DNA from: an uncultured bacterium
GTDB lineage: Bacteria > Hydrogenedentota > Hydrogenedentia > Hydrogenedentales > Hydrogenedentaceae
Reading direction: 5' to 3'
Assembly (NCBI GenBank): GCA_938014335.1
Contig: CALLRP010000006.1
Coordinates: 14,226-78,225, forward strand
DNA: 64,000 nucleotides
Made by a program: the position numbers and the translations under genes. Of the stretch, positions 20,279 through 34,557 are shown one piece after another (position 1 is the stretch's first letter; each line of letters begins with the position of its first letter). Under the pieces are notes generated by a model. That model ran no database searches. It saw only the letters and a list, made by a program, of their open reading frames with translations, and was not told the DNA's origin.

Positions 20279-22450
20279 CTAATAACCACGGGGAATATTA
20301 TTTAAATACTCGCTGTACCGGCAAAGGTGGACTATAGCTTTTGCCATCTGAGTAGGATTCTGGAAAACGTAAATATTTAATTCCTCAAGTTTTTCTAAAA
20401 CAGGATTGGTATTTTTCCCATGCGAAATGATTGTTGTATCCGAGGCGACAACAATAGGTTTCTGATAAGTATTCATTAATTTTGCAATTGTTTCCGCATC
20501 TTTTAGCTCAAATTGTGTTCCAATTTCTGATAATTTATCCAGACCTAAATTCTTTGCCCGTTCGGAATTTTGAAATCGCACATACGCACTTGCGATATAA
20601 CCTATTCCTAAAATGACGAGAATATCAATCTCATCATCCTGTATTAGGATCTCCATAGATTTTTTGAATAATTCCACATCTGTTCCTGCCACCATATCTA
20701 CGGGATTAGTTCGATTCCACCATTTAGGCATGATTTGGTCTAATTTCTGAAGTATGTTTTCAGATAAGGGAATCACATTCAATCCCGCCTTGCTACAGAC
20801 ATCAGCGGTAATAACCCCCCACCCTCCTCCTTGTGAAAGAATCCCCACATTTCGCCCCCTGGGAAGTGGGACATTAAAAAGTAAATGGGCTGTTTCTACC
20901 GCTTCATAAACATCCTCAGTCAAAATAGCACCCTGTTGAACACATACTCCTTGAAATAGGCGATAATCGGTTGCTAATGCCCCTGTATGTGAAGATGCAG
21001 CACGAGACCCTGCCTGAGTTTTGCCTCCTTTTAATAGGATAACAGGTTTTTTCTTCGTTACTTTTTTTAATTCATTGAAAAATAGACGTATATTTTTGGC
21101 ACTTTCAATATATGAAAAAACTACTTTTGTTTTGAGGTCGTTACCTAAAAAGTTTAGATAATGATAATTTTTTATCACTGCTTCATTTCCGGTGCTTATA
21201 AATCGTGATACTCCTAATTTATGTTGCATTGCCCAACTCATTACAGTGTTCCCAATATTCCCACTTTGAGAAAGTATTCCTAATCCACCGGCTTGAGGGT
21301 ATCTTCCTATCATAGAGCAATATAGTTTCATTGGGTCAGGACTTACTACACCGGCACAATTAGGACCAATTAAGTATAAATTATTTTCTTTTGCCATCTT
21401 TTCCAGTTCTTCCTGTGCAGATTGAGCTTCTTTATCTGCTAACTCTCCGAAACCTGCTGTAATGACTAAGACAACTTGAATTCCCTTTTCAATACACTCT
21501 CGAACGCAGGGCTGAACAGATTGTGGAGGGACAATAATAACCGCTAAGTCCACTTTTTCGGGTAAAGATGAAATAGAAGGATAGCAAGGAATATTTAGGA
21601 CTTCACTTCGTTTTGGGTTAACACCATATATTTTCCCTGTATATCCACCTTCTAAAGTATTGAATAGAACACGAAATCCCCATTTTAGTGACTTGTCTGT
21701 TATTCCCACAATGGCAATACTTTGGGGTTCAAATAATTTTAATAATTTATTGAAATCAATAGATGTATCTTCTGCTTCCAAGTTGTTTGTTGAATCGCTC
21801 CCTGTTATTGCAAGAGCATCTACTGCGATAGCTGTATTGTGATGTATTAAGATGGGATTTAATTCAAATTGTGTAATTTCTGTTTCATTCGATAAAAGAT
21901 TTTCAATAGATTTTATTACTTGAAAAAGTTTTTGTATATCAACAGGAGGGTCACCTCGAAAAGAATAAAAGATTTTATTGCAGCGTAGTTCGTTAATCAT
22001 TTCCTGCAAGTCAATTTCATTTATGGGTGCACAACGAAAGGATACATCTTCAAGAACTTCTACGAGAATACCTCCTATTCCAATATAGACACATATACCA
22101 TATTCGTTATGTTTCATTCCCCCCATGATGAGTTCTCGTTTCCCGTAAATATGTTTTTGTAATAAAAATCCCGATAATTTAAAGTTTTTTGAATTGTCCT
22201 GGATTTCATCAATTGCTTTTAATAAGTGTTCTTTCGATTTAATATCTGTCTTTACTAACCCAAAATCACTTTTGTGACCTATTCCTTCTACAATCCCTTT
22301 TAAGGTTATGGGGTAACCTAATGTTTTTGCAGAGGAAATAATTTCGTTAGTATCACTACACACATGAAAATCAGCCATTGGTATCTTATATTTTTCTAAC
22401 AAAGATAATGTCTGCACTTCAGATAATATTTGAGACAAATTCTCACTCAT
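20279..22450 (-). CDS. ADP-forming acyl-CoA synthetase (ACD family) with ATP-grasp domain placed N-terminally
   Basis: 723 aa. N-terminal ATP-grasp-like region (LEKYKIPMADFHV...GYPITLKG...HKSDFGLV). Then a CoA-binding Rossmann region (PQSIAIVGITDKSLKWG...GKIYGVNPK) and a ligase domain with the phospho-His loop (AASSHTGALA). Confidence 0.85.
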   Translation of the reverse strand: MSENLSQILSEVQTLSLLEKYKIPMADFHVCSDTNEIISSAKTLGYPITLKGIVEGIGHKSDFGLVKTDIKSKEHLLKAIDEIQDNSKNFKLSGFLLQKHIYGKRELIMGGMKHNEYGICVYIGIGGILVEVLEDVSFRCAPINEIDLQEMINELRCNKIFYSFRGDPPVDIQKLFQVIKSIENLLSNETEITQFELNPILIHHNTAIAVDALAITGSDSTNNLEAEDTSIDFNKLLKLFEPQSIAIVGITDKSLKWGFRVLFNTLEGGYTGKIYGVNPKRSEVLNIPCYPSISSLPEKVDLAVIIVPPQSVQPCVRECIEKGIQVVLVITAGFGELADKEAQSAQEELEKMAKENNLYLIGPNCAGVVSPDPMKLYCSMIGRYPQAGGLGILSQSGNIGNTVMSWAMQHKLGVSRFISTGNEAVIKNYHYLNFLGNDLKTKVVFSYIESAKNIRLFFNELKKVTKKKPVILLKGGKTQAGSRAASSHTGALATDYRLFQGVCVQQGAILTEDVYEAVETAHLLFNVPLPRGRNVGILSQGGGWGVITADVCSKAGLNVIPLSENILQKLDQIMPKWWNRTNPVDMVAGTDVELFKKSMEILIQDDEIDILVILGIGYIASAYVRFQNSERAKNLGLDKLSEIGTQFELKDAETIAKLMNTYQKPIVVASDTTIISHGKNTNPVLEKLEELNIYVFQNPTQMAKAIVHLCRYSEYLNNIPRGY

Positions 22451-22701
22451 TACAAAACTCCCACTACAATTTTTTCTAATTTGGTCTTTATGTTAACAAA
22501 TTTTTGTTAAGAAATTATATTTATTAAACATAAAAAGCACAGAAAACCTATAAAAACGCAAAAAATTTTTAATCACGAATGACACGAATGAGAATGAATA
22601 AAAAAACTTTTTTCTCATTCAAAAATGGGTATCGAAGAGCAGAAAAGTTCAGTATAGCAGAGCCATATTGTCTGTAGATATCTTGCAGAAAAACACTCAA
22701 A

Positions 22702-23007
22702 CTAATGTCTACTTCGTCGTTGACGCCTACGAATTTGCTGTTGTTTATTTTGATTTTGTCCTTTGTTTTCTTCTCCATCTCCTATCTTTTGATAAAATAA
22801 GGCTTCTTTATCGGAAAGTTTTTTGTTTTGTATCATGTTTTTAATCTTTTCAATGTCAGTTACTGTTCCCGTCGTTTTTATGTCTGTAGAAACTGAAGAT
22901 ATTTCTGTTTCTGGTTTTCCCGGTAAAGTCTGATAAATGAAAATAGCCACAAATATAATAGTGTAAAGTATTGAGACTGTTAAGAATATAGCATCATTTT
23001 TTTTCAT
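22702..23007 (-). CDS. Small single-pass membrane protein, last gene of the AmmeMemoRadiSam-linked operon
   Basis: 101 aa. N-terminal TM (IFLTVSILYTIIFVAIFIY) and a basic Q/R-rich tail. The start overlaps the stop of the upstream 1187-aa gene by 14 nt (ATGaaaaaaaaTGA). No clear SD. Confidence 0.5.
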   Translation of the reverse strand: MKKNDAIFLTVSILYTIIFVAIFIYQTLPGKPETEISSVSTDIKTTGTVTDIEKIKNMIQNKKLSDKEALFYQKIGDGEENKGQNQNKQQQIRRRQRRSRH

Positions 23008-26000
23008 GTTTATAGCACCGATTACATTGAATACAATCTATTTCTTCTATTTTTGAAATTCCGAGGTCACAGTGGTTTGGAAAAGTTCTCTGCCAGAAGA
23101 AAGAAAATATTCGTAGTGATTGAATTAAACTTAAAAATGCCCCTGTGGGACACAGCACCCGGCACCAGAAGCGGTTATATAAAAGGCTTCCGAACAAAAC
23201 AAAAATTCCAAAAATAGTTACGGTATTCGACATATCCAGCGTGAAAAAAGTAAGTAGTGGGTCAATACTTGCCATATTTGTCTCACGCAAAAAGAAATAA
23301 ACTAAAAAGAAAATAAATGCAAATATATACTTAAACTGCCTTGTCGTGTACCACATCTGCTTCGAAGGGGTAATTTTATTATTTATCCAGTTAAACTTAC
23401 TCATTAATTCTGACATGGCACCAAAGGGGCATAAATAACCGCAATATATATTCCCATTTATAAGAACCAGCAGAGGAATCCCTATGGTAAGTATGCAAGA
23501 AATAGATAAAGTAAACCGGAATTTATCAATAGATATTAGTTGAATAATGGAATAAATCCCGTATTGGATATTTAACCAAAAACCCAATACCAACATAACA
23601 GCAATTAACCAGATGATTCGAAGTACATCGTTGTGAAAGAAACGAAACACAATAGATAGGAGAATAAATATGATGAAGATGTAAACAGAATAAGTGGTTT
23701 GTGTGTGGTTTGCATGTGCAAGTTGTTGTATCTCAGAATAGCCCGTGCTTTTATCTTGAATTAATTTAGCAAACTCTTTCCCAGCAAATTGCACAGCCCT
23801 TTTTACTGCATCCGCTGTTGTTGTGGCACCGCTAACGGTATCTATTTCTGCAATCGTTTCGGGTTGAAATATATTTTTCCCTTTATAAAGAAAAAAATAG
23901 TCTTCTACCCGTGACAAATAGTCGGGTGTTTCATTAGATTGAATAACCCTGATATTTTCTATTCTACCTTCTTTGGAAACTTTAACGGCTATATCTATTT
24001 CACCACCGTATCCGATAACCTTAAATAACGAGGCAGTGGAAAAAATATAAAAAGTGTTCTCATTTTGATTTTCATCTTTTTTTGTAAACGAATAAAATCG
24101 TATTTTACGATTATCGGGAAGAGTCAATATCTCAGGTTTAATTTCCTCCCTTTCTGCGAGTTGTTGAGCAATTTGTGTGAAAACATCTTCGGGGAGAGGT
24201 ATTGTAGAACGATAATATATTTCTGTAGAGATAAAGGTTAGTATAAGAATAGGAACCAATGTATATCCAAGTGTTCTACCCCAAAGTGATGAAACACAAA
24301 ACAAAGTTTTTTGGAGTAATGGAATAAATAAAAGGACAAGAATTAGATAGAAAAAAACAATTCCTGCTGAATATTGAAGTCCCCACAGAGGGAGCAATAA
24401 CAATGGAAATACAAAGGCACCTATACCGGCTCCCAAATGATCGCATCCCTCTAAATATACTGCTAAACGAGAGGTGGTTAATTCTTTATCAGAGATTTCG
24501 AGGAATACAGAAAGCAAGAAACCTAACACAAAACCCCATAGAAAGAAAATAGCAAGATATGTGTAAAAATGAATAGATGGTATTTGAAATATGATGATTG
24601 TAAAAAATGCACATGTACAAGACAGGCAAAAGGCAATGAAAAAAGGCAATCGGCTTTTTTTGTTTACATAAAAAAGATTAAAAAAAATGGGACTTATTGA
24701 AAGTCCCAGCATAAAAAGTGAGGATAAAAGCCCCAAATAAGTGGATAATGAGCCATAAGTATATTGAAATTGAATAAAGAGCAGAAGAGAAACTCCCATG
24801 CCCACAAGTCCAATGATAAAAATGGCAAAGCAAGTTTCAGCAATCGAATAAGTGTATTTTTGTATTCTTTTTCGGAGCGACCTCTTTTTATATATCCATC
24901 GAAATAGGATAAAACTCAATGGGAAGCATATAAAAAGAAAAAGAATTATTCTTTTAATGATTATAATTTTTTCTAATAATCCTGAATACCCATGTTTCCA
25001 GAGATAAAAGAGATTACTGTATAAAAATCCAAGATATTTATTTTCAGAATTGATGAGGTAATTGCTGTCGGTAACTTTTTTAATTTCTTCATACCGATTT
25101 TTTTGAAAAATGATTCTATCCGGTGGATACAAGTCTCTCACAAGATTGGGTCTAATTTCGGGCAATTGTTGTGCAATCGTAGTTAGTCGCTGTTCCAGAG
25201 TGGGGACATGCTCACTCAAAGGATGTGTTAAAGAACCCAATAACCATGTTTCCTCCCCGGGTTTCAGCACAGTAACTTTAAATACTTGATGAAAAGTGAA
25301 AAATATAGAGGCTCCAAGGGTTGCAATTTCCCCCCCTAAAAAATTTTCACCTCCTGACATACGAATACCCACTATTCCTCTATCCGCGAGGCAATTCTTC
25401 AACAAGTTAAAAAAACTATCGGTGAGATATTGATTTGAATTTATCGTTTGAGGGTCACCTGTATACACCAAAATAATATCGAATTTTTCATTTGTAGTTG
25501 TTAAAAATAATCGAGGTTCCGTTTGTGGAAATATCAATTTGTTTGAAGTATTTAAAGATTTTTCTTGTAGTAGCGGGATAATTTTTTGGGATAATTCAAA
25601 ATCAAAAGGTATCCACAAAATTTTCTCTATTTCCTTAATTTTTATGAGGTAGGGTAATATATAAATAAAAGGTTCACCAATTAATAGAAAATTTTTTGCA
25701 TCATTTTTTTGAGCAAGGAAGGTGGACAAGAAACGCAAACCATATTCCTGATTTGGGAAATTTAAGGCAGGTTTAAGATTTCTCAACAAAATAAACTGGG
25801 TATTATCAAATCCATATAAATATTCCCCCTTCTGGGTGATAATTTTACCACCTAAATTTTCACTTTTAGTAAGATTTTCCCAGTGTGTTTTATTTTCCCA
25901 TGATTCTAATGTAAATGCTAAAAACAGAAACAATGGCAAAAGAAAAACAACAATAACTTTTTTAAATAAAACATAGTGAGATAGGGAAAAAGAGGAAGTA

Positions 26001-26557
26001 ATTAAAAAAAAGGAAACGAGACAGAAAGGAATCCAGTGAGAAAGACCGAAATATATGCACAATGAGGTAATAAGTCCACCTAACACAGCCCCGAAAGCCT
26101 CATAAGCGTATATAGAGCGAACAATTGTAGAAGGGGTAGGAATATTTTGTGAGTTCGATGTTAAATTTTGCTCCCACCAAAGTGTGCAGTGGGTAAATAA
26201 GAAACCTGTAAGAAAACTTAATCCTGCAGTTGTCAAAGAAGAATACAATACGAGGGTAGGAATATCAAATATTTCATAAGAAGGAATACCAGAAATATAT
26301 CGAGCACTGCGGATAAAAAAATGTGCACATAACCAGGCAGGAATATAAATAAGAGATGTTATTGTTAAGTATTTAAACTGTTTATAAAAAAGACGCCCTA
26401 CAAGGGTTCCGGGGATAATCCAGATAAACCAGAAAAAATAAAGAATACCCAGGGCAAATTCATTTTCTTCAATACAATGAAGGAAATCACGCACAAGGAG
26501 GGCTTGTGCGGTAATCGAAAACGCTCCTAATGCAATGGGTAATAGAAACTTTTTCAC
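22994..26557 (-). CDS. 1187-aa polytopic chimera: spermidine-synthase-like module + FMN-binding domain + NapH/NosR-like CX3CP iron-sulfur membrane module
   Basis: The GTG start shares GTGA with the upstream stop.
- Residues 1-215: TM bundle.
- About 285-445: SpeE-like fold (FDIILVYTGDPQTINSNQYLTDSFFNLLKNCLADRGIV) with a degenerate Gly motif (LLIGEPFIY).
- About 530-780: second TM bundle.
- About 830-925: FMN_bind domain with the flavinylation-type motif DTVSGAT (nt 23822-23842).
- About 955-1150: TM helices carrying CGYLCP (nt 23426-23443) and CRVLCP.
- C-terminus: C-x11-CIQCNRC. Confidence 0.8.
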   Translation of the reverse strand: MKKFLLPIALGAFSITAQALLVRDFLHCIEENEFALGILYFFWFIWIIPGTLVGRLFYKQFKYLTITSLIYIPAWLCAHFFIRSARYISGIPSYEIFDIPTLVLYSSLTTAGLSFLTGFLFTHCTLWWEQNLTSNSQNIPTPSTIVRSIYAYEAFGAVLGGLITSLCIYFGLSHWIPFCLVSFFLITSSFSLSHYVLFKKVIVVFLLPLFLFLAFTLESWENKTHWENLTKSENLGGKIITQKGEYLYGFDNTQFILLRNLKPALNFPNQEYGLRFLSTFLAQKNDAKNFLLIGEPFIYILPYLIKIKEIEKILWIPFDFELSQKIIPLLQEKSLNTSNKLIFPQTEPRLFLTTTNEKFDIILVYTGDPQTINSNQYLTDSFFNLLKNCLADRGIVGIRMSGGENFLGGEIATLGASIFFTFHQVFKVTVLKPGEETWLLGSLTHPLSEHVPTLEQRLTTIAQQLPEIRPNLVRDLYPPDRIIFQKNRYEEIKKVTDSNYLINSENKYLGFLYSNLFYLWKHGYSGLLEKIIIIKRIILFLFICFPLSFILFRWIYKKRSLRKRIQKYTYSIAETCFAIFIIGLVGMGVSLLLFIQFQYTYGSLSTYLGLLSSLFMLGLSISPIFFNLFYVNKKSRLPFFIAFCLSCTCAFFTIIIFQIPSIHFYTYLAIFFLWGFVLGFLLSVFLEISDKELTTSRLAVYLEGCDHLGAGIGAFVFPLLLLPLWGLQYSAGIVFFYLILVLLFIPLLQKTLFCVSSLWGRTLGYTLVPILILTFISTEIYYRSTIPLPEDVFTQIAQQLAEREEIKPEILTLPDNRKIRFYSFTKKDENQNENTFYIFSTASLFKVIGYGGEIDIAVKVSKEGRIENIRVIQSNETPDYLSRVEDYFFLYKGKNIFQPETIAEIDTVSGATTTADAVKRAVQFAGKEFAKLIQDKSTGYSEIQQLAHANHTQTTYSVYIFIIFILLSIVFRFFHNDVLRIIWLIAVMLVLGFWLNIQYGIYSIIQLISIDKFRFTLSISCILTIGIPLLVLINGNIYCGYLCPFGAMSELMSKFNWINNKITPSKQMWYTTRQFKYIFAFIFFLVYFFLRETNMASIDPLLTFFTLDMSNTVTIFGIFVLFGSLLYNRFWCRVLCPTGAFLSLIQSLRIFSFFWQRTFPNHCDLGISKIEEIDCIQCNRCYKHEKK

Positions 26558-28119
26558 AATTGCTCTTCGTGGAACACTTCTGCTTCAAAAACTTCAAATT
26601 CTGCACCTTCTTTATAGCCATCCGGAGATAATCCTGCTTTCATTGAAAGGTGTTCTAATGTCTGTTGTAAATTCCAATTTTGTTCTGGGGCTACCTGTGG
26701 TAAAAACAAAGCTTGATAATATCCTTTTTTCATAATTATCCCGTGTTTACCCAATTCAATTTCATTATAATGGTTTATCTTTCGTGGATGTGTAAGGAGG
26801 GATATGTCAATCTTAATCTTAGGCAACTCATCTTTTGTGATAGGGTAGAATCGTGGGTCCTTAAATCCAGCATTATACGCATTTTGTAAAACGGATTTAT
26901 ACATTGGCTTTGTTGCGAAAATTTCACCAATACATCCCCGCAAATCGTCATTTATTTTTAAGGTAACAAATGCGGCGCGAGGTGTTTTCATCGTCTCTGT
27001 TATTGTAATAGGTATTTCATTATCCAAAGGTAATTTGTTATGTTCCAGCACATATTCAAGTGTCCATCGTGCTAATTTTAATAAATCCTTTTTCTCTTCA
27101 GGTGTTAATGTCGTTGAAATATTCATAGATTTCTTTTCTCCTTTCTGCCATATTCCCGTAAAGGCAATACTAAAATAACTTACCGAATTCCGATAATCAT
27201 TTACAATCTCGCCGGATTGTTTATATTCAATAAGTTTGGTTTGTGTATTTTCGGGTAATAAATACATTAAAACTCCAATACCATAAGGACCACAAATAGT
27301 AATCCCTGTTTTTTCAATATAATCATAAAATCCCTTTACATCTCGTTTTTCAATATATTGATAAGCGACCATATCCAATTTTTTAAGATTTTCGGGTATA
27401 TTTTCATTAAAAGGTGTGTAATTGTAATTCGGTCCATAATGAGTAAAATCACTACTGGCAATTACCAATGTCTTCTCATCAATGTAGTTTTTTAATATTC
27501 GAGCTACCCTTTCTGTGGTTTCGATATCCAATCTGCCACAAATTAGAGGAATTAATTTAAATTCTCCTTTAAAATATTGTAACAGTGGTAATTCTATTTC
27601 AACGCTATGTTCTCCTTGTTGTGCTAAAGGAACTTCCTTGAAATATGGATATTTTTTTAATTCTTGTATTGTTTCTGTATCAAGAGGTATCTCGCCCATA
27701 GGTGTTTCATAACAATCAACGGAAGGGAGACTTATGAGATTTTCCAAAGATGCTCTATGGCTTGTCCCTAAAATGATTATCCGAGAATATGTCCCTTTCT
27801 CTGTTGTTTTAATTCCTCTGCATGCAGTTAAACCTGAATACATATAACCCGCATGAGGTAAAATAAGTCCGATTACATGTTCAATAAGCTCCCCATCTGC
27901 TTTATTAAACATTTCTGAGATTTGTTGTTTTAATTTTTCTGGATTTGCATCATACCATTGACCTGCAATTAAAGATTGATAAACTTTTTTAGACTCCCTA
28001 TGATTTTCTTGACTTAAAGATAAATTATCCCCACATGCAAATGGAAGAGTGACGATAAACAATAGAAAAAGAGTAATATTTGAATAATTTCTCATCCAAT
28101 AACCCCTTCTTTTTTTCAT
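26554..28119 (-). CDS. Fused AmmeMemoRadiSam system protein B (Memo) :: protein A (AMMECR1) with N-terminal signal/anchor-like segment
   Basis: 521 aa.
- Memo part, about 48-322: AGQWYDANPEKL, LPHAGYMYSG, SSDFTHYGPNY.
- AMMECR1 part, about 338-521: DLRGCIGE.
- N-terminus: MKKRRGYWMRNYSNITLFLLFIVTLPFAC(29)G, i.e. basic, then hydrophobic, then Cys.
- An alternative start at M9 is preceded by GAAGGGG. Confidence 0.88.
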   Translation of the reverse strand: MKKRRGYWMRNYSNITLFLLFIVTLPFACGDNLSLSQENHRESKKVYQSLIAGQWYDANPEKLKQQISEMFNKADGELIEHVIGLILPHAGYMYSGLTACRGIKTTEKGTYSRIIILGTSHRASLENLISLPSVDCYETPMGEIPLDTETIQELKKYPYFKEVPLAQQGEHSVEIELPLLQYFKGEFKLIPLICGRLDIETTERVARILKNYIDEKTLVIASSDFTHYGPNYNYTPFNENIPENLKKLDMVAYQYIEKRDVKGFYDYIEKTGITICGPYGIGVLMYLLPENTQTKLIEYKQSGEIVNDYRNSVSYFSIAFTGIWQKGEKKSMNISTTLTPEEKKDLLKLARWTLEYVLEHNKLPLDNEIPITITETMKTPRAAFVTLKINDDLRGCIGEIFATKPMYKSVLQNAYNAGFKDPRFYPITKDELPKIKIDISLLTHPRKINHYNEIELGKHGIIMKKGYYQALFLPQVAPEQNWNLQQTLEHLSMKAGLSPDGYKEGAEFEVFEAEVFHEEQL

Positions 28120-28314
28120 AACATCATTATATTAAATTTTAACCTGCCCATGGAGAGGATTTCGTTTGAGAAAGGCCGAAATTGTTTTTGTTTTTTGGCA
28201 ATTTTTTTTTGTGTAATAACGGTATTGCATAAGTCTGCCGAACCAAGGATGGTTTTTTTATGCCATATTTGGCAACTACCACGGCCAGAATAGATGATAA
28301 AAATTTTCTCCGAT

Positions 28315-29292
28315 TTATTGCCATATCCCGTATATCTCCTTGTTACATTTGGGACATTTTCCATTTGAAATATTGTTTTGGAGAATGTTATATCCATATC
28401 TTTCAATCAATAAAATTTTACAGAATGGACAGTAAGTATTTGAACTTTCACGGTGTATAATATTGCCAATATATACGAATTGCAATCCCTCATTTTGTGC
28501 AATTTGGCGAGCTTTCAGAAGCGTCTCTAAAGGAGTAGGGAAGAGGTGGGTCATTTTATAACGGGGATAAAACTGGGAAAAATGGAGTGGAGTATCCTTC
28601 CCCAAATTTTTCGCTATCCATGCAGATAATTGTTGTAAGTCTTCATCTTTATCATTCAAGGTGGGAATGACTAAATTCGTGACTTCAAGTTCAACGCCTG
28701 CATTTTTAGTCAGTTCTAAAGTTTTTAAAACAGGTTTTAACGAGCCATCACATACGGTTCTGTAAAATTCCTCTGAAAAACCTTTTAGGTCTATATTAGC
28801 GGAGTGAACAAAAGGTAGCAACCTTTTGTAGGGTTCTTCATTAATATATCCTGCGGTAACAAGAACATTTTTTAGTCCTTTTCCCGCGGATATTTTACAA
28901 CACTCATAAGTATACTCATAATAAGCCAATGGTTCGGTGTAGGTATAAGCGATAGAATGGCTCTTGTACTGAATTGCTAATGCTGTAATCTTTTCAGGGG
29001 CTATAAATTCAGTTTCATATTGATAAGGCTCCGCCTGTGATATTTCCCAATTCTGGCAATTTTTGCAGTGGAGATTACAGCCCACAGTAGCGAGGGATAA
29101 AATAGGTGTTCCAGGCAAAAAATGATAAAGCGGTTTTTTTTCAACGGGGTCAATATGAATAGAACAAGGATAACCATAAGTTACTGCATATAATTTTCCA
29201 TCTATATTAACCCGAATACGACACTCCCCTTTTTGTCCGTTCTCCAGCACACAATAACGGGGACAAAGTTCACATTTGACTAATGTAGTCAT
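28315..29292 (-). CDS. AmmeMemoRadiSam system radical SAM enzyme (PflA-like activase family)
   Basis: 325 aa. N-terminal Cys knuckle (CELCPRYC), rSAM motif GCNLHCKNCQNWEIS and a C-terminal zinc-knuckle (CPFC...CPKC). It lies adjacent to Memo::AMMECR1 on the same strand. Confidence 0.9.
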   Translation of the reverse strand: MTTLVKCELCPRYCVLENGQKGECRIRVNIDGKLYAVTYGYPCSIHIDPVEKKPLYHFLPGTPILSLATVGCNLHCKNCQNWEISQAEPYQYETEFIAPEKITALAIQYKSHSIAYTYTEPLAYYEYTYECCKISAGKGLKNVLVTAGYINEEPYKRLLPFVHSANIDLKGFSEEFYRTVCDGSLKPVLKTLELTKNAGVELEVTNLVIPTLNDKDEDLQQLSAWIAKNLGKDTPLHFSQFYPRYKMTHLFPTPLETLLKARQIAQNEGLQFVYIGNIIHRESSNTYCPFCKILLIERYGYNILQNNISNGKCPKCNKEIYGIWQ

Positions 29293-29509
29293 TGGTATTC
29301 TACCATTGGTGTTTGTCTTTCAATAGTATTATAACGAGAAAAATACAAACAAAGGGAACTTTTTAATTAATTTTGGTGTTAATTAATGAAAATATAAAAA
29401 AATTAAAATATAAAACATTAAATATTAAAAATAATTTGATATATAAATAATTTTATGATAAAATTGTTTATAATTATTAAATAACGATACATTTATAAAG
29501 GGTTTATTG

Positions 29510-29980
29510 ATGAAAGATTACTCATCTGAAGCAAATGAAATTTTTAATACGATTCAGGTGATTCAACGCTGGATGCATGACCGTTTTCACTGCAATTTTG
29601 ATGAAGAGAGAAGGATGAAGATAGGACATGACCTCACAATGCCTCAATTTCATATGTTAGTCACAATTAAACAATTTGAGCCACTGAAATTGAAAGAATT
29701 AGCAGAATATCTTCATGTCTCTCCGCCTGCTGCAAGTTTAATGTTAGACCGCTTGGTTGAATTAGGTTTGGTAATTCGAGAACAATCTGCAGAAGACCGT
29801 CGAGAAATTCAGATACGACTAACTCCAGAGGCGAGTGAAACTTTAAAGTGGCATGAGAGGCAGATTTTATCGGGAATAAAAAAATTATTGCAAGGATTAG
29901 GAGATGAAACCGCCTCTCAATGGGTTGATGTGTACAAAAAGATAAGACAATATATAATTTCTGTTCAGAATAATAAATGA
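29510..29980 (+). CDS. MarR-family transcriptional regulator
   Basis: ATG at 29510. Winged-helix region LTMPQFHMLVTIKQFEPLKLKELAEYLHVSPPAASLMLDRLVELGLVIRE. It sits first in the efflux operon. Confidence 0.85.
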   Translation: MKDYSSEANEIFNTIQVIQRWMHDRFHCNFDEERRMKIGHDLTMPQFHMLVTIKQFEPLKLKELAEYLHVSPPAASLMLDRLVELGLVIREQSAEDRREIQIRLTPEASETLKWHERQILSGIKKLLQGLGDETASQWVDVYKKIRQYIISVQNNK

Positions 29981-29998
29981 ATTCAACGAGGAGGTTTT

Positions 29999-31348
29999 AT
30001 GAGTGATAATGAGATAAAGAGATATATAACAATTACAAAATTAGCATCTTTTTTTGTTGCTATTCTGGTTTTACTATCGGGAGTGATTCTTTTTATTTTC
30101 TTTTCATCGTTTCGAAAACCTCCAGCTCAAGCGGAACAAGAAGAAAGGCCTATACCTGTTGAAGTGATACAAGTCCAGCCCGAAGATATCCCGATTGTTT
30201 TAACTGGTTTTGGTGAAGTCCGAACATTGGCGACAGTCCCTATATCCTCAGAAATTTCAGGTCGTATAATTCGCATCCATCCAAGACTTGAGGCAGGGGA
30301 AGTGATTTCTGCGGGAGAAGTCCTTTTTGAAATTGACCCCAGCGATTATCAGGTGAAACTTCAATCTGCACAAGCAGGGTTAGAACAGGCAAAACATGTA
30401 TTAAAAAGGCTACAAGAACAATTTGCCTCTGACCAGGGAAGGCTTAAGACTTTAGAAAGGACAAAAGACCTTGCCTATTCAGAATTTCAACGAGTGAAAC
30501 AATTGTTTGAAAAAGAGAAGGTGGGAACACAATCTAATGTTGAACAAACAGAGCGAACATACAATCAAACATTAGATGCTTTTAATCAATTAGCCCAGTC
30601 AGTAGAATTATATCCGCTACGAATTAAAGAAGCAGAAGAATCTGTGAAGACAGCAGAAGCACAATTAGCACAAGCAGAAATTAATTTAACACGGACACAG
30701 GTAAAAGCACTTTTTCATGCGAGAATAAAATCGGTTAATTTGGAAGTAGGACAATATGTAAATCCCGGGATGGTCGTGATGACACTTTCCGATGATTCTA
30801 TTTTAGAAATATCCATTCCACTCGATGCTAAACAGGCAATACAATGGCTCCCATTTCAGAAAGATGATATGAATATTGATTCTGCATGGTTCCCTCCCTT
30901 AGAACCTAAAGAATGTGAAATTCTGTGGACTGAAGATAAAGAAAATCATAAGTGGAAGGGAGTACTTCATCGTATTGAAAGATATGACGAAAAAACAAGA
31001 ACAATCTATGCAGTTGTTCGAGTAGAAAAGGGAAATATTTATTCCCAGTCAGAAGACAAGATACCATTAGTTCAAGGTATGTTTTGTCAGGTAAAAATTC
31101 CAGGAAAAACACTAATAGGTATCTATCGTTTACCTGATACTGCAGTAAGTTTTGAAGGGACTGTTTATGTTGCAGAAGATAATCGTCTACGTTCCATTCA
31201 AGTAGAAAGGTTATATATTCAAGGTGATGAGGTTTTTGTTAGTGGGTTAAATCCAGGAACTATAGTTATTACGACACGGTTGATTAATCCAATGGGAAAT
31301 TCATTGTTGGAAATTAAAAAAAGGGGCGATAAGGAAACTGTTTTATGA
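29999..31348 (+). CDS. RND efflux periplasmic adaptor (HlyD/AcrA family)
   Basis: 449 aa. N-terminal TM anchor, an A/Q/E-rich coiled-coil hairpin (about 115-235) and beta-barrel segments. GAGGAGG lies upstream. ATGA overlap with the RND pump gene. Confidence 0.88.
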   Translation: MSDNEIKRYITITKLASFFVAILVLLSGVILFIFFSSFRKPPAQAEQEERPIPVEVIQVQPEDIPIVLTGFGEVRTLATVPISSEISGRIIRIHPRLEAGEVISAGEVLFEIDPSDYQVKLQSAQAGLEQAKHVLKRLQEQFASDQGRLKTLERTKDLAYSEFQRVKQLFEKEKVGTQSNVEQTERTYNQTLDAFNQLAQSVELYPLRIKEAEESVKTAEAQLAQAEINLTRTQVKALFHARIKSVNLEVGQYVNPGMVVMTLSDDSILEISIPLDAKQAIQWLPFQKDDMNIDSAWFPPLEPKECEILWTEDKENHKWKGVLHRIERYDEKTRTIYAVVRVEKGNIYSQSEDKIPLVQGMFCQVKIPGKTLIGIYRLPDTAVSFEGTVYVAEDNRLRSIQVERLYIQGDEVFVSGLNPGTIVITTRLINPMGNSLLEIKKRGDKETVL

Positions 31349-34300
31349 ATCAGTTTTTAGGATATTTCGTGGGAAACCGTGTTTTTGCGAATATATTAAC
31401 GGCTGTCATACTTATTGCGGGACTCATTTCGCTAATGTTAATGCGAAGAGAACTCTTCCCTGAGTTTTCGTTAGATATGATAACTGTCCAAGTATTCTAT
31501 CCTGGTACTGACCCTGAAGAAGTAGAAGAAGGGATATGCCGAAAGATTGAAGAGGCTTTAGATACTGTTGAAGGGATAAAACGCTATACGACAGTCGCTT
31601 CTGAAAACATGGGAATGGCAAGTATTGAGGTAATGGATGGTTATGATTTGAATAAAGTCTATGACAAAGTTCGCAACGCTATAGATTCCATTTCTACATT
31701 TCCTAAAGATGCAGAAAAACCGATAACAAATGAGGTAACTATCCGTCGAGAAGTTATTCAAGTGGCATTATCCGGAAATTTGCCTGATAGAACTTTGAAA
31801 GAATGGGCAGAACAGGTAAAAGATGAATTACAAGCATTACCTGAGATATCACAAGTGTTTATTTTTGGTGCAAAACAATATGAGATAGGTATAGAAATTT
31901 CTGAAGAAAGACTCCAGAAATTAGGGTTAACTTTTTCTCAAGTAGCATCAGCAGTTCGTTCCGGAAATTTAAACATTTCGGGTGGACTTATTCGTTCCAA
32001 AGGAGCTGAAATACGAGTTAGAACTATAGGTAGGAAATACTATGCAGATGAATTAGCAAAGATAGTAGTCCTTGCAAAACCCACAGGTGAAGTAATTACA
32101 TTAGATCAGGTAGCAGAAATACGCGATGATTTTAATGAAGACCCATTAGAAGCAGATTACAATGGTGAAAAATCAGTTCTAATTGCATGTTTTAAGACTC
32201 AGGAAGAAGACGATATTGCAATATCTGATGCAGTTCATAAGTATGTAAAAGCGAAACAAAAGCAGTTGCCACCGGGAGTGAAAATTTCTTTGTGGAACGA
32301 TAGAGCTCGACTAATCCGTGCACGATTAAATCTGCTTGAAGTTAATGGGATTCAAGGATTGATCATCGTTATTACACTCTTATTATTGTTGATGAATGCT
32401 CGTTTATCATTTTTCGTTACTTTAGGTATTCCTATATCTTTTGCAGGTGCCCTATGTATTTTATATCTTAACGGAAACACATTAAATATGATGTCGTTAT
32501 TTGGGTTGATTATGGTGTTGGGAATGTTGGTTGATGACGCTATTGTAGTGGGCGAAGCCATATATTACCATCGCCAACGCGGTTTACCCCCTATGAAGGC
32601 AGCTTTAGCAGGAGTTGAAGAAGTGGGTCTCCCTGTAATTGGTGCTGTTACTACAACTATTGCCGCATTTCTACCTTTAATGTTTGTCAGTGGGATAATG
32701 GGAAAATTTATTCGTATTCTACCTATTGTTGTTATTTCTGCTTTATCTGTTTCTTTATATGAATCTCTCTTCCTTCTACCCGCACATCTTAATGACCTCC
32801 CCGATTTATCTCATACTATTTCAAATTCAGATAATCGAAGACATCCTCTGAAAAAATTAAGATGGTTTTTTAGTGATTTCCTTGATTCCTTCATAAACAA
32901 AGTATACCTTCCGTTCTTAAATAATATGTTGAAACATAGATATATTTCGTTAAGTGCATTTATTGCTGTATTATTAACAGTCTTTGGACTTGTCCGTGGA
33001 CAGATTATTAAATTTGAGGTCTTCTCTGAAGTAGATGGGGATTATCTAATGGCACAGGTAGAATTCCCAGCGGGGACACCCTTTCATGTCACAAAAGAGG
33101 CAGTAAAGAAAATGGAAGAGGCACTTACAAGATTGACAGAAAAAACGACTACTATGAGTGGTGAACCTATGGTTCAAAATGTGTATAGCGTTGTTGGACA
33201 GAGTAGCAGTGGTTTTTCTGCTCAAGGAGGTAGTAATGTTGGTGAAATAAGAGTAGAATTATTACCCACAGAGCGGAGGGGAATTCATGCCAAAAAGATA
33301 AGTTCCATGTGGGCAAAAGAAACAGGCGAAATTCCAGGAGCATTAAGACAGAAATATGATATCAGTGGAGGAGGTCCCCGAGGAACAGGCATTGAACTTT
33401 GGTTGAGGAGTGAAAACCTCAACGATGTGGTTCAGGCAAGTCAAGAAATAAAGGAAAAACTTCGGACCTATGACGGCGTATACCAGATTGAAGATGATTA
33501 TAGACCTGCAAAGATTGAAGCACGGTTTTACTTAAAGCCCGAAGCTCAAACATTGGGGATTACTCTTGATTCTTTAGGTAGACAATTAGCAAGTGGTTTT
33601 TTCGGCGAAGAGGCAGTCCGAATTCAAAGAGGTAGAGATGATATTCGTATCCGAGTTCGTTATCCGCGTGAAGAACGTAGTTATCTTTCTATACTAAATC
33701 AAGTTCGTATTCGAACAAATCAGGGGTATGAAGTTCCTTTATTTGCAGTAGCAGATGTAGATTATTCCCCGGGTTTCGCATCTATAACCCGCGTAGATGG
33801 TATGAGAAGAGTAGTTGTAACCGCAGATATTGATTCCTCAAAAGCCAATTCACAGGAGATTATTGGAGATTTAACAAATACATTCTTGCCTTCTCTTCAA
33901 AAGAAATATCCGGGATTAATCTGGTCATTTGAAGGACCTCAACAGAGTAGTAGAGATGCTCTTAATTCATTAAAAGTGGGTTTCCCAATTGCACTATTAG
34001 TGATATTTTTAATCATATCATCCATTTTTCATTCCTATTCCCAACCTATATTGATTATGCTTACAATACCTTTTGGTGTAGTAGGAGCCTTAATAGGACA
34101 TTTAATCTTTGGTCAAATTGTAACGCTTATGAGTTTATTTGGTATTGTAGCACTTGCTGGGGTTGTTGTTAATGATGCCATTGTGTTTATAGATTGTTTC
34201 AATGCTAACCTCGGAGCGGGTAGTGATTTTATTTCTGCTATTATTCAAGCAGGGAAGAGAAGATTCCGTGCTATATTTTTAACTTCAACTACCACTTTTG

Positions 34301-34557
34301 GCGGTTTGATTGGGTTACTTTTTACACGTGATATGCAAGCACAGTTTTTAAAACCGATGGCTATTTCTTTAGCAATAGGCTTGATATTTTCCACAACAGT
34401 AACTCTATTATTTATACCCACCATTATTGGAGTATTAAATGATATTCGTAGAGTATTGTATATAATACGGAAACGAAGAATTCCCAAACCTGAAGAGGTA
34501 GAGCCTGTATTTGCAATGTTAGAACAAAAACGACAATTAGAAAACGGTTCTTTATAA
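31345..34557 (+). CDS. RND efflux transporter permease (AcrB/HAE family)
   Basis: 1070 aa. 12-TM architecture with two large periplasmic loops. Conserved proton-relay helices GLIMVLGMLVDDAIVVGEAI and GIVALAGVVVNDAIVFID. Confidence 0.93.
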   Translation: MNQFLGYFVGNRVFANILTAVILIAGLISLMLMRRELFPEFSLDMITVQVFYPGTDPEEVEEGICRKIEEALDTVEGIKRYTTVASENMGMASIEVMDGYDLNKVYDKVRNAIDSISTFPKDAEKPITNEVTIRREVIQVALSGNLPDRTLKEWAEQVKDELQALPEISQVFIFGAKQYEIGIEISEERLQKLGLTFSQVASAVRSGNLNISGGLIRSKGAEIRVRTIGRKYYADELAKIVVLAKPTGEVITLDQVAEIRDDFNEDPLEADYNGEKSVLIACFKTQEEDDIAISDAVHKYVKAKQKQLPPGVKISLWNDRARLIRARLNLLEVNGIQGLIIVITLLLLLMNARLSFFVTLGIPISFAGALCILYLNGNTLNMMSLFGLIMVLGMLVDDAIVVGEAIYYHRQRGLPPMKAALAGVEEVGLPVIGAVTTTIAAFLPLMFVSGIMGKFIRILPIVVISALSVSLYESLFLLPAHLNDLPDLSHTISNSDNRRHPLKKLRWFFSDFLDSFINKVYLPFLNNMLKHRYISLSAFIAVLLTVFGLVRGQIIKFEVFSEVDGDYLMAQVEFPAGTPFHVTKEAVKKMEEALTRLTEKTTTMSGEPMVQNVYSVVGQSSSGFSAQGGSNVGEIRVELLPTERRGIHAKKISSMWAKETGEIPGALRQKYDISGGGPRGTGIELWLRSENLNDVVQASQEIKEKLRTYDGVYQIEDDYRPAKIEARFYLKPEAQTLGITLDSLGRQLASGFFGEEAVRIQRGRDDIRIRVRYPREERSYLSILNQVRIRTNQGYEVPLFAVADVDYSPGFASITRVDGMRRVVVTADIDSSKANSQEIIGDLTNTFLPSLQKKYPGLIWSFEGPQQSSRDALNSLKVGFPIALLVIFLIISSIFHSYSQPILIMLTIPFGVVGALIGHLIFGQIVTLMSLFGIVALAGVVVNDAIVFIDCFNANLGAGSDFISAIIQAGKRRFRAIFLTSTTTFGGLIGLLFTRDMQAQFLKPMAISLAIGLIFSTTVTLLFIPTIIGVLNDIRRVLYIIRKRRIPKPEEVEPVFAMLEQKRQLENGSL

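Follow-up and report, generated by a model that had tools for sequence, protein, structure and literature searches.

A widely conserved 1187-residue membrane protein, predicted to join a transporter bearing a degenerate SpeE domain to a flavin/iron-sulfur electron relay, is encoded with AmmeMemoRadiSam genes

A 1187-residue membrane protein encoded in the 64,000-nt window (the whole stretch of DNA analyzed) is real and widely conserved, and is, as judged from its sequence, a transporter carrying a degenerate spermidine synthase (SpeE)-like domain joined to a flavin/iron-sulfur electron relay. Its gene is the fourth of a conserved five-gene operon, and we give a probability of roughly 55% to the reading in which the protein is a dedicated membrane subunit, combining a relay with transport or binding, of an extracytoplasmic AmmeMemoRadiSam system. 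No description of the protein was found in the searchable literature. Translation of the minus strand from a GTG start confirmed the 1187-aa ORF of the original prediction (Table 1); all of the motifs listed for it were found, at exactly the coordinates given, LLIGEPFIY lies at residues 291–299, and the domain inventory and order proved correct. The AF2 model of the protein has a pLDDT of 78.9 and a pTM of 0.74.

Table 1. Features of the 1187-aa protein and of the genes of its operon (window coordinates).
Feature	Coordinates	Strand	Basis or remarks
Whole ORF	22994..26557	(-)	1187 aa, GTG start, about 20 predicted TM helices
MFS N-lobe, TM1-6, residues 1-193	25979..26557	(-)	
TM7, residues 196-229, first of two extra central helices	25871..25972	(-)	Model, positive-inside counts
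SpeE-fold domain, residues about 230-525	24983..25870	(-)	Predicted periplasmic, catalytically degenerate
TM8, residues 531-562, second extra central helix	24872..24967	(-)	Model, positive-inside counts
MFS C-lobe, TM9-14, residues 572-750	24308..24844	(-)	Matches TM part of NCBIfam PRK03612
TM15 linker helix, residues 760-785	24203..24280	(-)	Model; comparison with standalone MFS-SpeE proteins
FMN_bind domain, residues about 800-934, predicted periplasmic	23756..24160	(-)	Pfam match 849-925
NapH/NosR-like five-TM module, residues 951-1147	23117..23707	(-)	Fer4_5 twice, NosR/NapH partial matches
Predicted cytoplasmic four-Cys tail C1163-x11-C1175-x2-C1178-x2-C1181	23015..23071	(-)	All four Cys invariant
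AmmeMemoRadiSam radical SAM enzyme, 325 aa	28315..29292	(-)	TIGR04337 377.6 bits vs cutoff 220; conserved gene order
61-aa twin-arginine mini-protein MAINRRKFLSS...SSPWAG	28139..28324	(-)	10-nt overlap with radical SAM gene
Memo + AMMECR1 fusion (AmmeMemoRadiSam B + A)	26554..28119	(-)	TIGR04336 228.9 bits, TIGR04335 166.5 bits
101-aa downstream protein	22702..23007	(-)	One TM helix + motif '...IEKIKNMIQNKKLSDKEALFYQ'

The fusion had been thought unusual, yet it defines a large family across six phyla. Full-length homologs were found in about 25 species-level MAGs, with identity down to 24–31%, and the fused architecture is present in 71 of the best 150 cluster representatives. It also occurs uninterrupted in NCBI, ENA, JGI and Logan assemblies, at 24–87% identity. 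An assembly chimera or a frameshift join of two genes, for which nothing was found in favor, is effectively ruled out by this shared architecture.

The operon runs from the radical SAM enzyme through the 61-aa twin-arginine mini-protein, the Memo-AMMECR1 fusion and the 1187-aa protein, whose ORF shares 4 nt at its 5′ end with the stop of the upstream gene, to a small TM protein. The three signature proteins of AmmeMemoRadiSam (TIGR04335/04336/04337) are encoded directly upstream and pass the curated cutoffs. This context was absent from the original prediction, and we regard the operon with its export signals as decisive. Radical SAM, Memo and AMMECR1 genes lie directly upstream on the same strand at 21 of 24 full-length loci. 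Among the de-duplicated fused loci from metagenomes, at least one AmmeMemoRadiSam gene was present in 17 of 21 and all three in 12 of 21, with none found within 7 kb at four of the 21 and none within 8 kb of locus L011. The two modules of the protein also partner separately with AmmeMemoRadiSam, in a Rosetta-stone pattern: standalone MFS-SpeE proteins adjoin a radical SAM gene together with one for AMMECR1 or Memo (L005 and L088; 9 of 17 loci), and standalone FMN_bind-NapH proteins with the same tail as the fused ones ('..C..CNRCYK') occur in radical SAM–mini-ORF–Memo-AMMECR1 operons (L033, L034). The usual AmmeMemoRadiSam system is a soluble trio for which, to our knowledge, a membrane partner has not been described. 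In the present operon, by contrast, A and B form a single signal-anchored protein, a Tat mini-protein has been inserted, and there are two additional membrane proteins, one a 20-TM redox/transport protein and the other a small TM protein.

In the reading that we prefer, the AmmeMemoRadiSam system would work on the outer surface of the cytoplasmic membrane or outside it, and the 1187-aa protein would combine two accessory modules that can each also partner with the system alone. Module 1 (residues 1–790) would be a 14-TM MFS transporter whose two extra central helices hold the SpeE-fold domain in the periplasm, where, given the loss of its dcSAM-binding and catalytic residues, it would act as a ligand-binding or docking pseudoenzyme and not as an aminopropyltransferase. 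The MFS part, with its invariant intramembrane acids E153 and D706, would move a small molecule, probably a cationic or amphipathic one, needed or produced by the exported enzymes. Module 2 (residues 760–1187) would be a NosR/NapH-type relay, in which the four-Cys cluster and the two CX3CP motifs would take up electrons, supplied on the cytoplasmic side or by quinol. These would pass the membrane to a periplasmic FMN attached covalently to T912 via ApbE and be handed to periplasmic partners. The partners would be Memo-AMMECR1, anchored in the membrane, and most plausibly also the radical SAM enzyme, the [4Fe-4S] cluster of which needs a flavodoxin-like low-potential donor. The signal-less radical SAM enzyme would leave with the co-translated mini-protein as a Tat hitchhiker.

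Two TM bundles had been predicted and both are present; structure comparison indicates, however, that they are not separate entities but an N-lobe and a C-lobe that together make up a single MFS fold, so that the N-terminal two thirds of the protein is a divergent relative of the NCBI class 'fused MFS/spermidine synthase'. The repeat signal between the C-lobe and the N-lobe is in register but weak. E153 sits in the motif-C-like 'EALGAxxGG' of TM5 and D706 within 'DHLGAAxGA' of the C-lobe. In the model, TM7 is predicted to take the chain outward and TM8 to bring it back inward, followed by a K/R-rich loop (residues 557–575) that is predicted to be cytoplasmic, and TM15, which is missing from the standalone MFS-SpeE proteins, is predicted to lead out to the FMN_bind domain. 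This putative topology is consistent with K+R counts on the short loops of 19 homologs (about 24 'in' versus about 4 'out'), with the same bias among 72 fused and 70 standalone representatives, and it agrees with the outward-facing FMN_bind domain proposed originally. A version in which a membrane lipid (isoprenoid, quinone or envelope lipid) is flipped or presented by the MFS part differs from the preferred reading in the identity of the cargo only: the periplasmic SpeE-like domain would hold the lipid by its head group, Memo, AMMECR1 and the radical SAM enzyme would modify it after their export, and the NosR-like module would feed in electrons. We consider it unlikely, though the least so of the alternatives, as the structural neighbors of the MFS part are not substrate-specific, with amine and drug exporters scoring highest, and the small number of lipid-related neighbors might be a matter of lineage synteny.

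The Memo-AMMECR1 protein has a signal anchor or lipobox at its N-terminus in every locus examined (here a signal anchor or lipobox-like sequence with ..LPFAC), while the radical SAM enzyme of the operon has no signal of its own. Loci without the mini-ORF have a Tat signal on the radical SAM enzyme itself (L005, L088, L131, L152, L160), and the mini-ORF occurs in 17 of 18 fused loci, in which the radical SAM enzyme is signal-less. This resembles Tat hitchhiker export, in which, for example, the hydrogenase small subunit pilots the large subunit, with a twin-arginine signal on one protein and a signal-less, cofactor-containing partner encoded adjacent to it; here, however, the putative pilot has a length of only about 60 aa and the relation is drawn from complementary distribution alone. 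The very basic tail of the mini-protein and its lack of a clear AxA cleavage site suggest that it may instead be a membrane-anchored subunit. On some partner radical SAM enzymes (L146, L150, L168) the signal is Sec-like or is a plain TM anchor, by which export of the enzyme as a folded Fe-S protein is hard to explain; such enzymes may be tethered to the membrane instead. The lack of a signal on the radical SAM enzyme here, together with the tail and missing cleavage site of the mini-protein, fits a quite unlikely alternative, in which the radical SAM enzyme stays in the cytoplasm, bound to the NapH-like module at its Cys-rich inner face. The relay would then link it in either direction to periplasmic Memo-AMMECR1 chemistry, and the mini-protein would be a small structural subunit of the membrane complex. 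The mini-ORF also tracks the NapH-like module into the split loci, and the eroded SAM-type site of the fused lineage would be sensible if periplasmic SAM were not needed. Against this, the radical SAM enzymes of sister systems themselves bear a bona fide Tat signal, the mini-protein has an invariant RRxF motif that indicates Tat recognition, and cytoplasmic radical SAM enzymes are normally paired with soluble flavodoxin or ferredoxin, without a dedicated membrane relay.

The SpeE-like fold, first placed at residues 285–445, is wider than this, comprising a beta N-domain and a Rossmann fold in the AF2 model. Although structure comparison shows the fold to be complete, Pfam and TIGR00417 scores are far under the cutoffs (Spermine_synth, residues 305–396: 17.9 bits versus 22.9), and identity to SpeE aminopropyltransferases (1uir, 3anx, 2o06, 3o4f) is 11–18%. 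Unlike in these enzymes, the Gly-rich GGGDGG is replaced by GEPFIY, the ribose-binding Glu by P317 and the catalytic Asp by Y365 (Asn in most fused relatives), and the dcSAM-specifying Asp is absent. With these canonical residues gone, the binding or scaffold role suggested originally is reasonable. The predicted periplasmic location by itself speaks against dcSAM-dependent catalysis; neither SAM nor dcSAM is known to be supplied there. In common with NF037959 'fused MFS/spermidine synthase' and the polytopic SpeE PRK03612, the protein has MFS-type TM helices and a SpeE fold, and its TM9–15 match the PRK03612 TM region; it differs in having the SpeE domain between the two MFS lobes, on the TM7/TM8 hairpin, and an additional NosR-like module. 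It gave no match to NF037959, whereas standalone relatives P0049, P0104, P0021 and P0022 exceed the cutoff (41–48 bits versus 40). Its nucleotide site is also more eroded than in standalone members, whose SAM-type site is intact (GGGAGG, ribose Glu); erosion exactly in the fused lineage weakens a role in handling an adenosyl cofactor. An active aminopropyl- or methyltransferase making a polyamine-like product for export by the MFS part, with the NosR-like part as an unrelated add-on, could draw on the complete fold, the retained D319, E347 and D368, the invariant family-specific motifs lining the equivalent of the active-site cleft (SGGENFLGGE, 400–410; KPGEETW, 432–438; YPPDR..FQ..RY, 477–489) and the amine transporters among the MFS neighbors. 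It is nevertheless improbable given the residue losses, scores and location above, and it leaves the operon linkage unexplained.

Domain scans and residue conservation bear out a NosR/NapH/RdhC-type C-terminal third. The FMN_bind match (E 9e-15, 55.5 bits versus a cutoff of 22) contains the ApbE-type motif D906-T-V-S-G-A-T912 (DTVSGAT, nt 23822–23842), and the closest solved sequences to this domain are RnfG and a flavinylated FMN domain. Fer4_5 matched two stretches (2.2e-12), and CGYLCP (residues 1039–1044, nt 23426–23443) and CRVLCP (residues 1132–1137, nt 23147–23164) both lie at helix ends predicted to be cytoplasmic. D906, G910, A911, T912, both CX3CP motifs and the four tail Cys are invariant in 19 full-length homologs, with identity down to 27%, so that neither chance nor an artefact accounts for them. 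We infer flavinylation at T912 and the direction of electron flow; no ApbE gene was seen among the sampled ORFs of the window. The layout is that of NosR/NirI, in which a TM helix leads to an FMN_bind domain in the periplasm that bears the ApbE motif, followed by five TM helices with two cytoplasmic CX3CP motifs and a Cys-rich tail. NosR and NapH are described with two ferredoxin-type clusters, whereas the C-x11-CxxCxxC tail here is a candidate site for one [4Fe-4S] cluster, which makes the electron path less certain. A further difference is the MFS-SpeE module of about 790 aa that is fused ahead of the FMN_bind-NapH part. The 1187-aa protein falls in the broad class of NapH-like flavinylated systems and RdhC/PceC (Meheust et al., 2021, PMC8238504; Buttet et al., 2018, PMC5928378), PF12801 membrane proteins whose FMN-binding domain is extracytosolic and which have been proposed to exchange electrons, in either direction across the membrane, with enzymes outside the cytosol. 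Neither spermidine synthase nor Memo, AMMECR1 or radical SAM partners are mentioned in the survey of Meheust et al. (2021; PMC8238504), and it is AmmeMemoRadiSam proteins that are the conserved partners here. A NosR/NapH/RdhC orthologue serving a periplasmic terminal reductase (for N2O, nitrate or organohalide) is disfavored as very improbable, since, despite the shared layout, the NosR, NapH and RnfG matches are all partial and sub-threshold (NosR 47.6 versus 1000; NapH 38.5 versus 213), nosZ, nap and rdhA are absent from the operon and the inspected neighboring gene calls, and the conserved neighbors are AmmeMemoRadiSam genes.

The 101-aa downstream protein, whose gene shares 14 nt with the 1187-aa ORF and which gave no match in a Pfam scan, is homologous to a region that, in other lineages, is fused to the C-terminus of the big protein as an extension.

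The gene for the window protein is the fourth in a tightly packed operon of five minus-strand genes, an assignment based on the gene overlaps and on the conservation of gene order. Upstream of it lie genes for the complete AmmeMemoRadiSam set (radical SAM enzyme, Memo and AMMECR1) and for a 61-aa mini-protein, and the last gene encodes a small transmembrane (TM) protein (see the table). Promoter and terminator scanning of positions 22300-29600 returned counts at the level of shuffled sequence and was uninformative. The same gene order is found in relatives in which the big protein is about 30% identical, and the radical SAM, Memo and AMMECR1 genes occur immediately upstream and on the same strand in 21 of 24 full-length loci. 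As for the other three, L037 has the trio 3 kb downstream, L004 has only the radical SAM gene and L011 has none. In a de-duplicated, independent sample of metagenome loci of the fused type, each with 4 kb or more of sequence upstream, at least one AmmeMemoRadiSam gene was present in 17/21 and all three in 12. Within this subtype the link between the big protein and the AmmeMemoRadiSam genes is strong.

Features of the window and of the window protein (nucleotide positions unless residues are stated)
Feature	Position	Strand	Remarks
Operon gene 1, AmmeMemoRadiSam radical SAM enzyme	28315-29292	-	TIGR04337, 377.6 bits (cutoff 220)
Operon gene 2, 61-aa mini-protein	28139-28324	-	10-nt overlap with gene 1
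Operon gene 3, Memo + AMMECR1 fusion	26554-28119	-	TIGR04336, 228.9 bits (cutoff 26); TIGR04335, 166.5 bits (cutoff 99)
Operon gene 4, window protein	22994-26557	-	4-nt overlap with gene 3
Operon gene 5, 101-aa TM protein	22702-23007	-	14-nt overlap with gene 4
ADP-forming acetyl-CoA synthetase-like gene	20279-22450	-	723 aa; ATP-grasp_5 + CoA_binding + Succ_CoA_lig
MarR-type regulator and RND efflux-like genes	29507-34557	+	MarR by L006 synteny; RND-like 449, 1070 aa
Second radical SAM protein	52135-53130	+	PF04055, 7e-22
Seven helices	residues 2-229		AlphaFold2 model
SpeE-like domain	residues 235-267, 289-442, to about 521		Beta N-domain, Rossmann fold, trailing helices; AlphaFold2 model
Single helix	residues 531-562		AlphaFold2 model
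Helices	residues 572-785		AlphaFold2 model; seven TM segments by hydropathy
Alpha/beta domain	residues 807-934		AlphaFold2 model
Five helices, then Cys-rich tail	residues 951-1126		AlphaFold2 model
FMN_bind (PF04205)	residues 849-925		E 9e-15
LLIGEPFIY	residues 291-299
DTVSGAT	residues 906-912; 23822-23842	-
CGYLCP	residues 1039-1044; 23426-23443	-
CRVLCP	residues 1132-1137
Tail cysteines	C1163-x11-C1175-x2-C1178-x2-C1181
GGGDGG dcSAM loop of canonical SpeE	G294-E-P-F-I-Y
Ribose-binding Glu (human E124)	P317
Catalytic Asp (human D173)	Y365
D126	D319		Retained
D155	E347		Acid kept
D176	D368		Retained

According to an AlphaFold2 model built on a 19-sequence alignment (mean pLDDT 78.9, pTM 0.74), the chain is laid out as an MFS N-lobe (TM1-6), TM7, the SpeE-like domain, TM8, an MFS C-lobe (TM9-14), TM15, the FMN_bind domain, five NapH-like TM helices and a four-Cys tail. 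The MFS assignment is backed, independently of the model, by a Pfam MFS_1 match in one homolog and by standalone relatives that exceed the NF037959 cutoff; in these standalone relatives the chain stops after TM14. Two intramembrane acids, E153 (in a motif-C-like 'EALGAxxGG') and D706 ('DHLGAAxGA'), are invariant in the alignment of homologs, as would be expected of a working ion-coupled MFS. With the N-terminus set inside and the helices taken from the model, the K+R residues of short loops number about 24 'in' versus about 4 'out' across the 19 homologs, and for the MFS part alone about 14 in versus 2-3 out across 72 fused and 70 standalone representatives. Helix parity and this positive-inside bias together put the FMN_bind domain and the SpeE-like domain on the outer side of the membrane and the Cys tail with the CX3CP motifs on the inner side, a predicted arrangement that agrees with the original claim of an outward-facing FMN_bind domain and with the known topology of NosR, NapH and PceC (PMC8238504, PMC5928378). 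In an alternative arrangement TM7 and TM8, both very hydrophobic, would not cross the membrane and the SpeE-like domain would be cytoplasmic.

The DTVSGAT and CGYLCP motifs lie exactly where the original prediction had put them, and the CRVLCP motif, the LLIGEPFIY segment and the C-x11-CxxCxxC tail that it described were likewise located; profile scanning also returned the domains that it had named, Spermine_synth weakly. DTVSGAT fits the flavinylation motif D-x-x-[ST]-G-A-[ST], with D906, G910, A911 and T912 invariant in 19 homologs. Fer4_5 (PF12801) matches twice (2.2e-12), and both CX3CP pairs (C1039/C1043-P and C1132/C1136-P) as well as all four tail cysteines are invariant in the homolog alignment.

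The partners of the fused protein are also found beside its separate halves. Standalone MFS-SpeE genes adjoin genes for an AMMECR1 lipoprotein and a radical SAM enzyme at locus L005 and for a radical SAM enzyme and a Memo-AMMECR1 protein at L088, and a radical SAM gene is nearby in 9 of 17 standalone MFS-SpeE metagenome loci. The standalone FMN_bind-NapH-like proteins closest to the C-terminal module are 406 aa long and end in '..ECIKCNRCYK', compared with 'DCIQCNRCYK' in the window protein. At two Thermodesulfovibrio-like loci (L033, L034) such a gene belongs to an operon with radical SAM, mini-ORF and Memo-AMMECR1 genes in that order, and there is no MFS-SpeE gene. The 101-aa downstream protein, with a single TM helix, the motif 'LSDKEALFY' and strongly basic C-terminal residues (RRRQRRSRH), is fused in many lineages to the C-terminus of the big protein, where it appears as a TM helix followed by '..VD..I..LI....LSDHEAxYY'. 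These patterns of fusion and fission argue that all the parts work together. A resemblance of the small protein to SHOCT domains was considered and found unsupported, a Pfam scan of it and five orthologs giving no match at E <= 10.

In every locus examined the Memo-AMMECR1 protein has an N-terminal signal anchor or lipobox-like sequence. The window's version, a fusion of Memo (B) and AMMECR1 (A) of 521 aa, starts with an anchor or lipobox-like '..TLPFAC', and its orthologs have either TM anchors with Pro/Glu-rich linkers or classical lipoboxes. In fused-type loci the radical SAM enzyme has no signal, and a mini-ORF is present in 17/18; it is likewise found in three more loci where the contig ends within the big gene. 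The mini-protein (MAINRRKFLSS...SSPWAG) combines a twin-arginine motif, RRxF, that is invariant with a hydrophobic stretch and a basic tail containing 'YPG', and its C-terminal residues are W-x-G. A profile search for its family found 68 clusters; all are 50-87 aa long, carry no annotation beyond 'hypothetical protein' and are in no case joined to another protein. A 96-aa ORF proposed by the ORF finder at 28116-28406 was judged spurious, and preference was given to the 61-aa ORF, which lies in a different frame and is conserved. No mini-ORF was found in standalone-type loci, and there an N-terminal sequence of the Tat (RR or KR), Sec-like or TM-anchor type is usually present on the radical SAM enzyme itself ('SRRGFLRAAGLAGAALAAPPAAA' at L005, 'SRRTFMHTVCLSALALPAAA' at L088). 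Since the mini-ORF and these signals are distributed in a complementary way, the simplest reading is that the mini-protein would supply a Tat signal in trans to the radical SAM enzyme. Alternatively it may be a retained membrane subunit; in favour of this, L033 and L034 have it together with the NapH-like module, and it shows no obvious cleavage site. At L146, L150 and L168, all beside standalone MFS-SpeE genes, the radical SAM enzyme has a Sec-like signal or plain TM anchor and not a Tat signal, which is odd if this Fe-S enzyme is indeed exported.

We give a probability of about 0.55 to the reading that the window protein serves an extracytoplasmic AmmeMemoRadiSam system as its membrane subunit, supplying it with an electron relay and with transport or binding of a small molecule. 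Electrons would enter the NosR-like module from the cytoplasmic face or from quinol, pass the CX3CP pairs and the four-Cys cluster to a covalent FMN on T912 outside, and from there reach the anchored Memo-AMMECR1 protein and, probably, an exported radical SAM enzyme, whose cluster would need a flavodoxin-like reductant. The MFS part would serve these enzymes by moving a small molecule, which the SpeE-derived domain may bind; alternatively that domain may dock the enzymes. The weaknesses of this reading are the single Cys cluster in the tail, the lack of an ApbE gene among the sampled ORFs of the window, the erosion of the SAM-type site specifically in the fused lineage, and the minority of fused loci without AmmeMemoRadiSam neighbours, two of which have LpxC upstream.

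A more specific and rather improbable proposal is that of periplasmic radical-SAM chemistry. The folded radical SAM enzyme would leave through Tat, piloted in trans by the mini-protein (in cis in sister systems), and would be re-reduced by the covalently flavinylated, flavodoxin-like FMN domain, which the NosR-like module would feed across the membrane. The MFS part would bring in SAM or remove 5'-deoxyadenosine and methionine, with the SpeE-derived domain as a receptor for an adenosyl ligand, intact (GGGAGG) in standalone proteins but remodelled in the fused lineage. If so, the trio would modify an envelope or extracytoplasmic substrate. It is also unlikely that the cargo of the MFS part is a lipid, and we think it quite unlikely that the radical SAM enzyme stays in the cytoplasm, docked on the Cys-rich face of the membrane subunit.

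The SpeE fold, an N-terminal beta domain with a Rossmann domain, is present in the window protein, with scores below cutoff for both Spermine_synth (PF01564, 17.9 vs 22.9 bits) and TIGR00417 (24.4 vs 249.55). Key positions were mapped by alignment to the human and Thermus enzymes. By this mapping the Gly-rich loop, ribose Glu and catalytic Asp are all replaced in the window protein, which makes an active transferase very unlikely even with three acidic positions kept, and the domain is judged on its sequence not to be an aminopropyltransferase. In standalone relatives the nucleotide site is still close to canonical, with the consensus GGGAGG, the ribose Glu in 56/70 and the adenine Asp in 68/70; in the fused lineage the loop reads roughly G-P-G-S-L-S and the ribose position is His or Asp. 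The Asp that specifies dcSAM occurs in 0 of 72 fused and 0 of 70 standalone relatives, and among the 150 representatives, fused and standalone alike, the catalytic position is almost always Asn or Gly (N in the fused family). Three family-specific invariant motifs, SGGENFLGGE, KPGEETW and YPPDR..FQ..RY, replace in the alignment the loops that line the SpeE cleft, so that a conserved binding function is likely. The loss of the Gly motif noted originally is borne out by the alignment, and the accompanying suggestion of a binding or scaffold module gains likelihood, as to binding, from the invariant motifs. Although the window protein combines an MFS fold and a SpeE-fold domain in one chain, it has no match to NF037959 ('fused MFS/spermidine synthase') and scores 32.6 bits against a cutoff of 472 for PRK03612; its N-terminal two thirds are a divergent relative of these families and not a scored member. 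Standalone relatives score 41-48 bits for NF037959 (cutoff 40), and one fused homolog (P0050) 39.6.

The C-terminal third may operate in the same way as NosR, NapH and RdhC, but by curated scores, cluster count and genomic partners the protein lies outside that family. It scores 47.6 for NosR (NF046105, cutoff 1000), 38.5 for NapH (TIGR02163, 213) and 24.9 for PRK09477 (234), and the matches to NosR, NapH, RnfG and SpeE models are all partial and far below threshold. The tail lacks the two ferredoxin-type CxxCxxCxxxCP clusters, having just four cysteines (C-x11-C-x2-C-x2-C) and no CxxxCP. By sequence, the only relatives of this part with solved structures are FMN_bind domains, namely RnfG and one flavinylated FMN domain. 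A respiratory role of the NosR/NapH kind is scarcely credible, as the conserved neighbours are AmmeMemoRadiSam genes and not terminal reductases: neither the window operon nor the adjacent gene calls that were inspected contain nosZ, napAB or rdhA. ApbE was not encountered among 10 sampled ORFs of the 64-kb window.

The gene itself is an uninterrupted ORF of 1187 codons with a GTG start. That it is an assembly artefact can be dismissed given its even base composition (GC 0.32-0.35 throughout, with no break) and the same architecture in homologs from NCBI, ENA, JGI and Logan assemblies. Among 5.8 billion proteins searched, 19 full-length homologs of 1181-1306 aa share this architecture, down to 27% identity. 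None of the findings that the original prediction had named as telling against it emerged: there is no trace of a chimera or frameshift join, homologous fusions exist, and FMN_bind is not cytoplasmic, the last point being a prediction. Scanning of one genome per species found the full-length gene in about 25 MAGs, from Hydrogenedentota, Planctomycetota (Pirellulales, Phycisphaerae, Sedimentisphaerales), Lentisphaerae, Kiritimatiellae, Thermodesulfobacteriota and Nitrospirota. The clade to which the window belongs bears the name Candidatus Hydrogenedens, and the protein is labelled at source 'FMN-binding protein', '4Fe-4S binding protein' or 'spermidine synthase'. When its first 790 residues were used for an exhaustive profile search, 4,972 cluster representatives came up at E <= 1e-30; the best 150 of these, all below 1e-161 and covering the whole profile, comprise 71 fused (at least 1130 aa), 70 standalone (at most 870 aa) and 9 intermediate proteins.

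Conservation of MEMO1 and AMMECR1 extends from archaea to humans, and both have links to disease. The AmmeMemoRadiSam system unites their relatives with a bacterial radical SAM partner, is classed in NCBIfam as a hypothetical equivalog only and, to our knowledge, has no known reaction. Burroughs et al. reportedly catalogued Memo gene contexts in 2019, and that work may already describe part of the association seen here. Otherwise the searchable literature yielded no membrane partner of AmmeMemoRadiSam, no paper on the fused architecture or the MFS-SpeE family and no precedent for an exported or periplasmic radical SAM enzyme. A survey of flavinylation (PMC8238504) does not mention spermidine synthase, Memo, AMMECR1 or radical SAM partners. 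The locus suggests that one widespread AmmeMemoRadiSam subtype is wired to the membrane by export or anchor signals, a transmembrane flavin/Fe-S relay and a transporter with a SpeE-derived domain, which would narrow the location of its substrate to the envelope or periplasm and points to a chemistry that depends on transport of a small molecule and on electrons of low potential. Two enigmatic, widely conserved protein sets would gain a membrane-redox context, the large, unstudied 'fused MFS/spermidine synthase' family would gain its first functional one, and the possibility is raised of radical SAM enzymes acting outside the cytoplasm. Concrete parts open to testing are T912 as flavinylation site, the four-Cys site, the Tat mini-protein, and E153 and D706 within the membrane.

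Several other genes were observed near these loci. An LpxC homolog (PF03331, about 1e-30) is the ORF directly upstream of the fused gene at L123 (5182-6270) and L127 (5057-6094), fused-type loci with no AmmeMemoRadiSam genes within 7 kb, and DUF6259 proteins are encoded near L127 and L001. On the Planctomycetota-like contig L004 (10660-18478) the fused and radical SAM genes adjoin a tetrapyrrole block (HemL, HemB, HemC/CobA/HemD, siroheme synthase-like, CbiK, NirD/L-like and radical SAM/SPASM), with UbiA and a MoeA-like gene upstream; no Memo or AMMECR1 gene was detected in this interval. In the window, the acetyl-CoA synthetase-like gene is the next one after the operon, shares its strand and is separated from it by 252 nt, an adjacency kept in the 70%-identical L006 and L007 and not in other phyla. 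The second radical SAM protein of the window is unrelated to that of the operon. The MarR-type and RND-like genes diverge from the operon start, and L006 is arranged alike.
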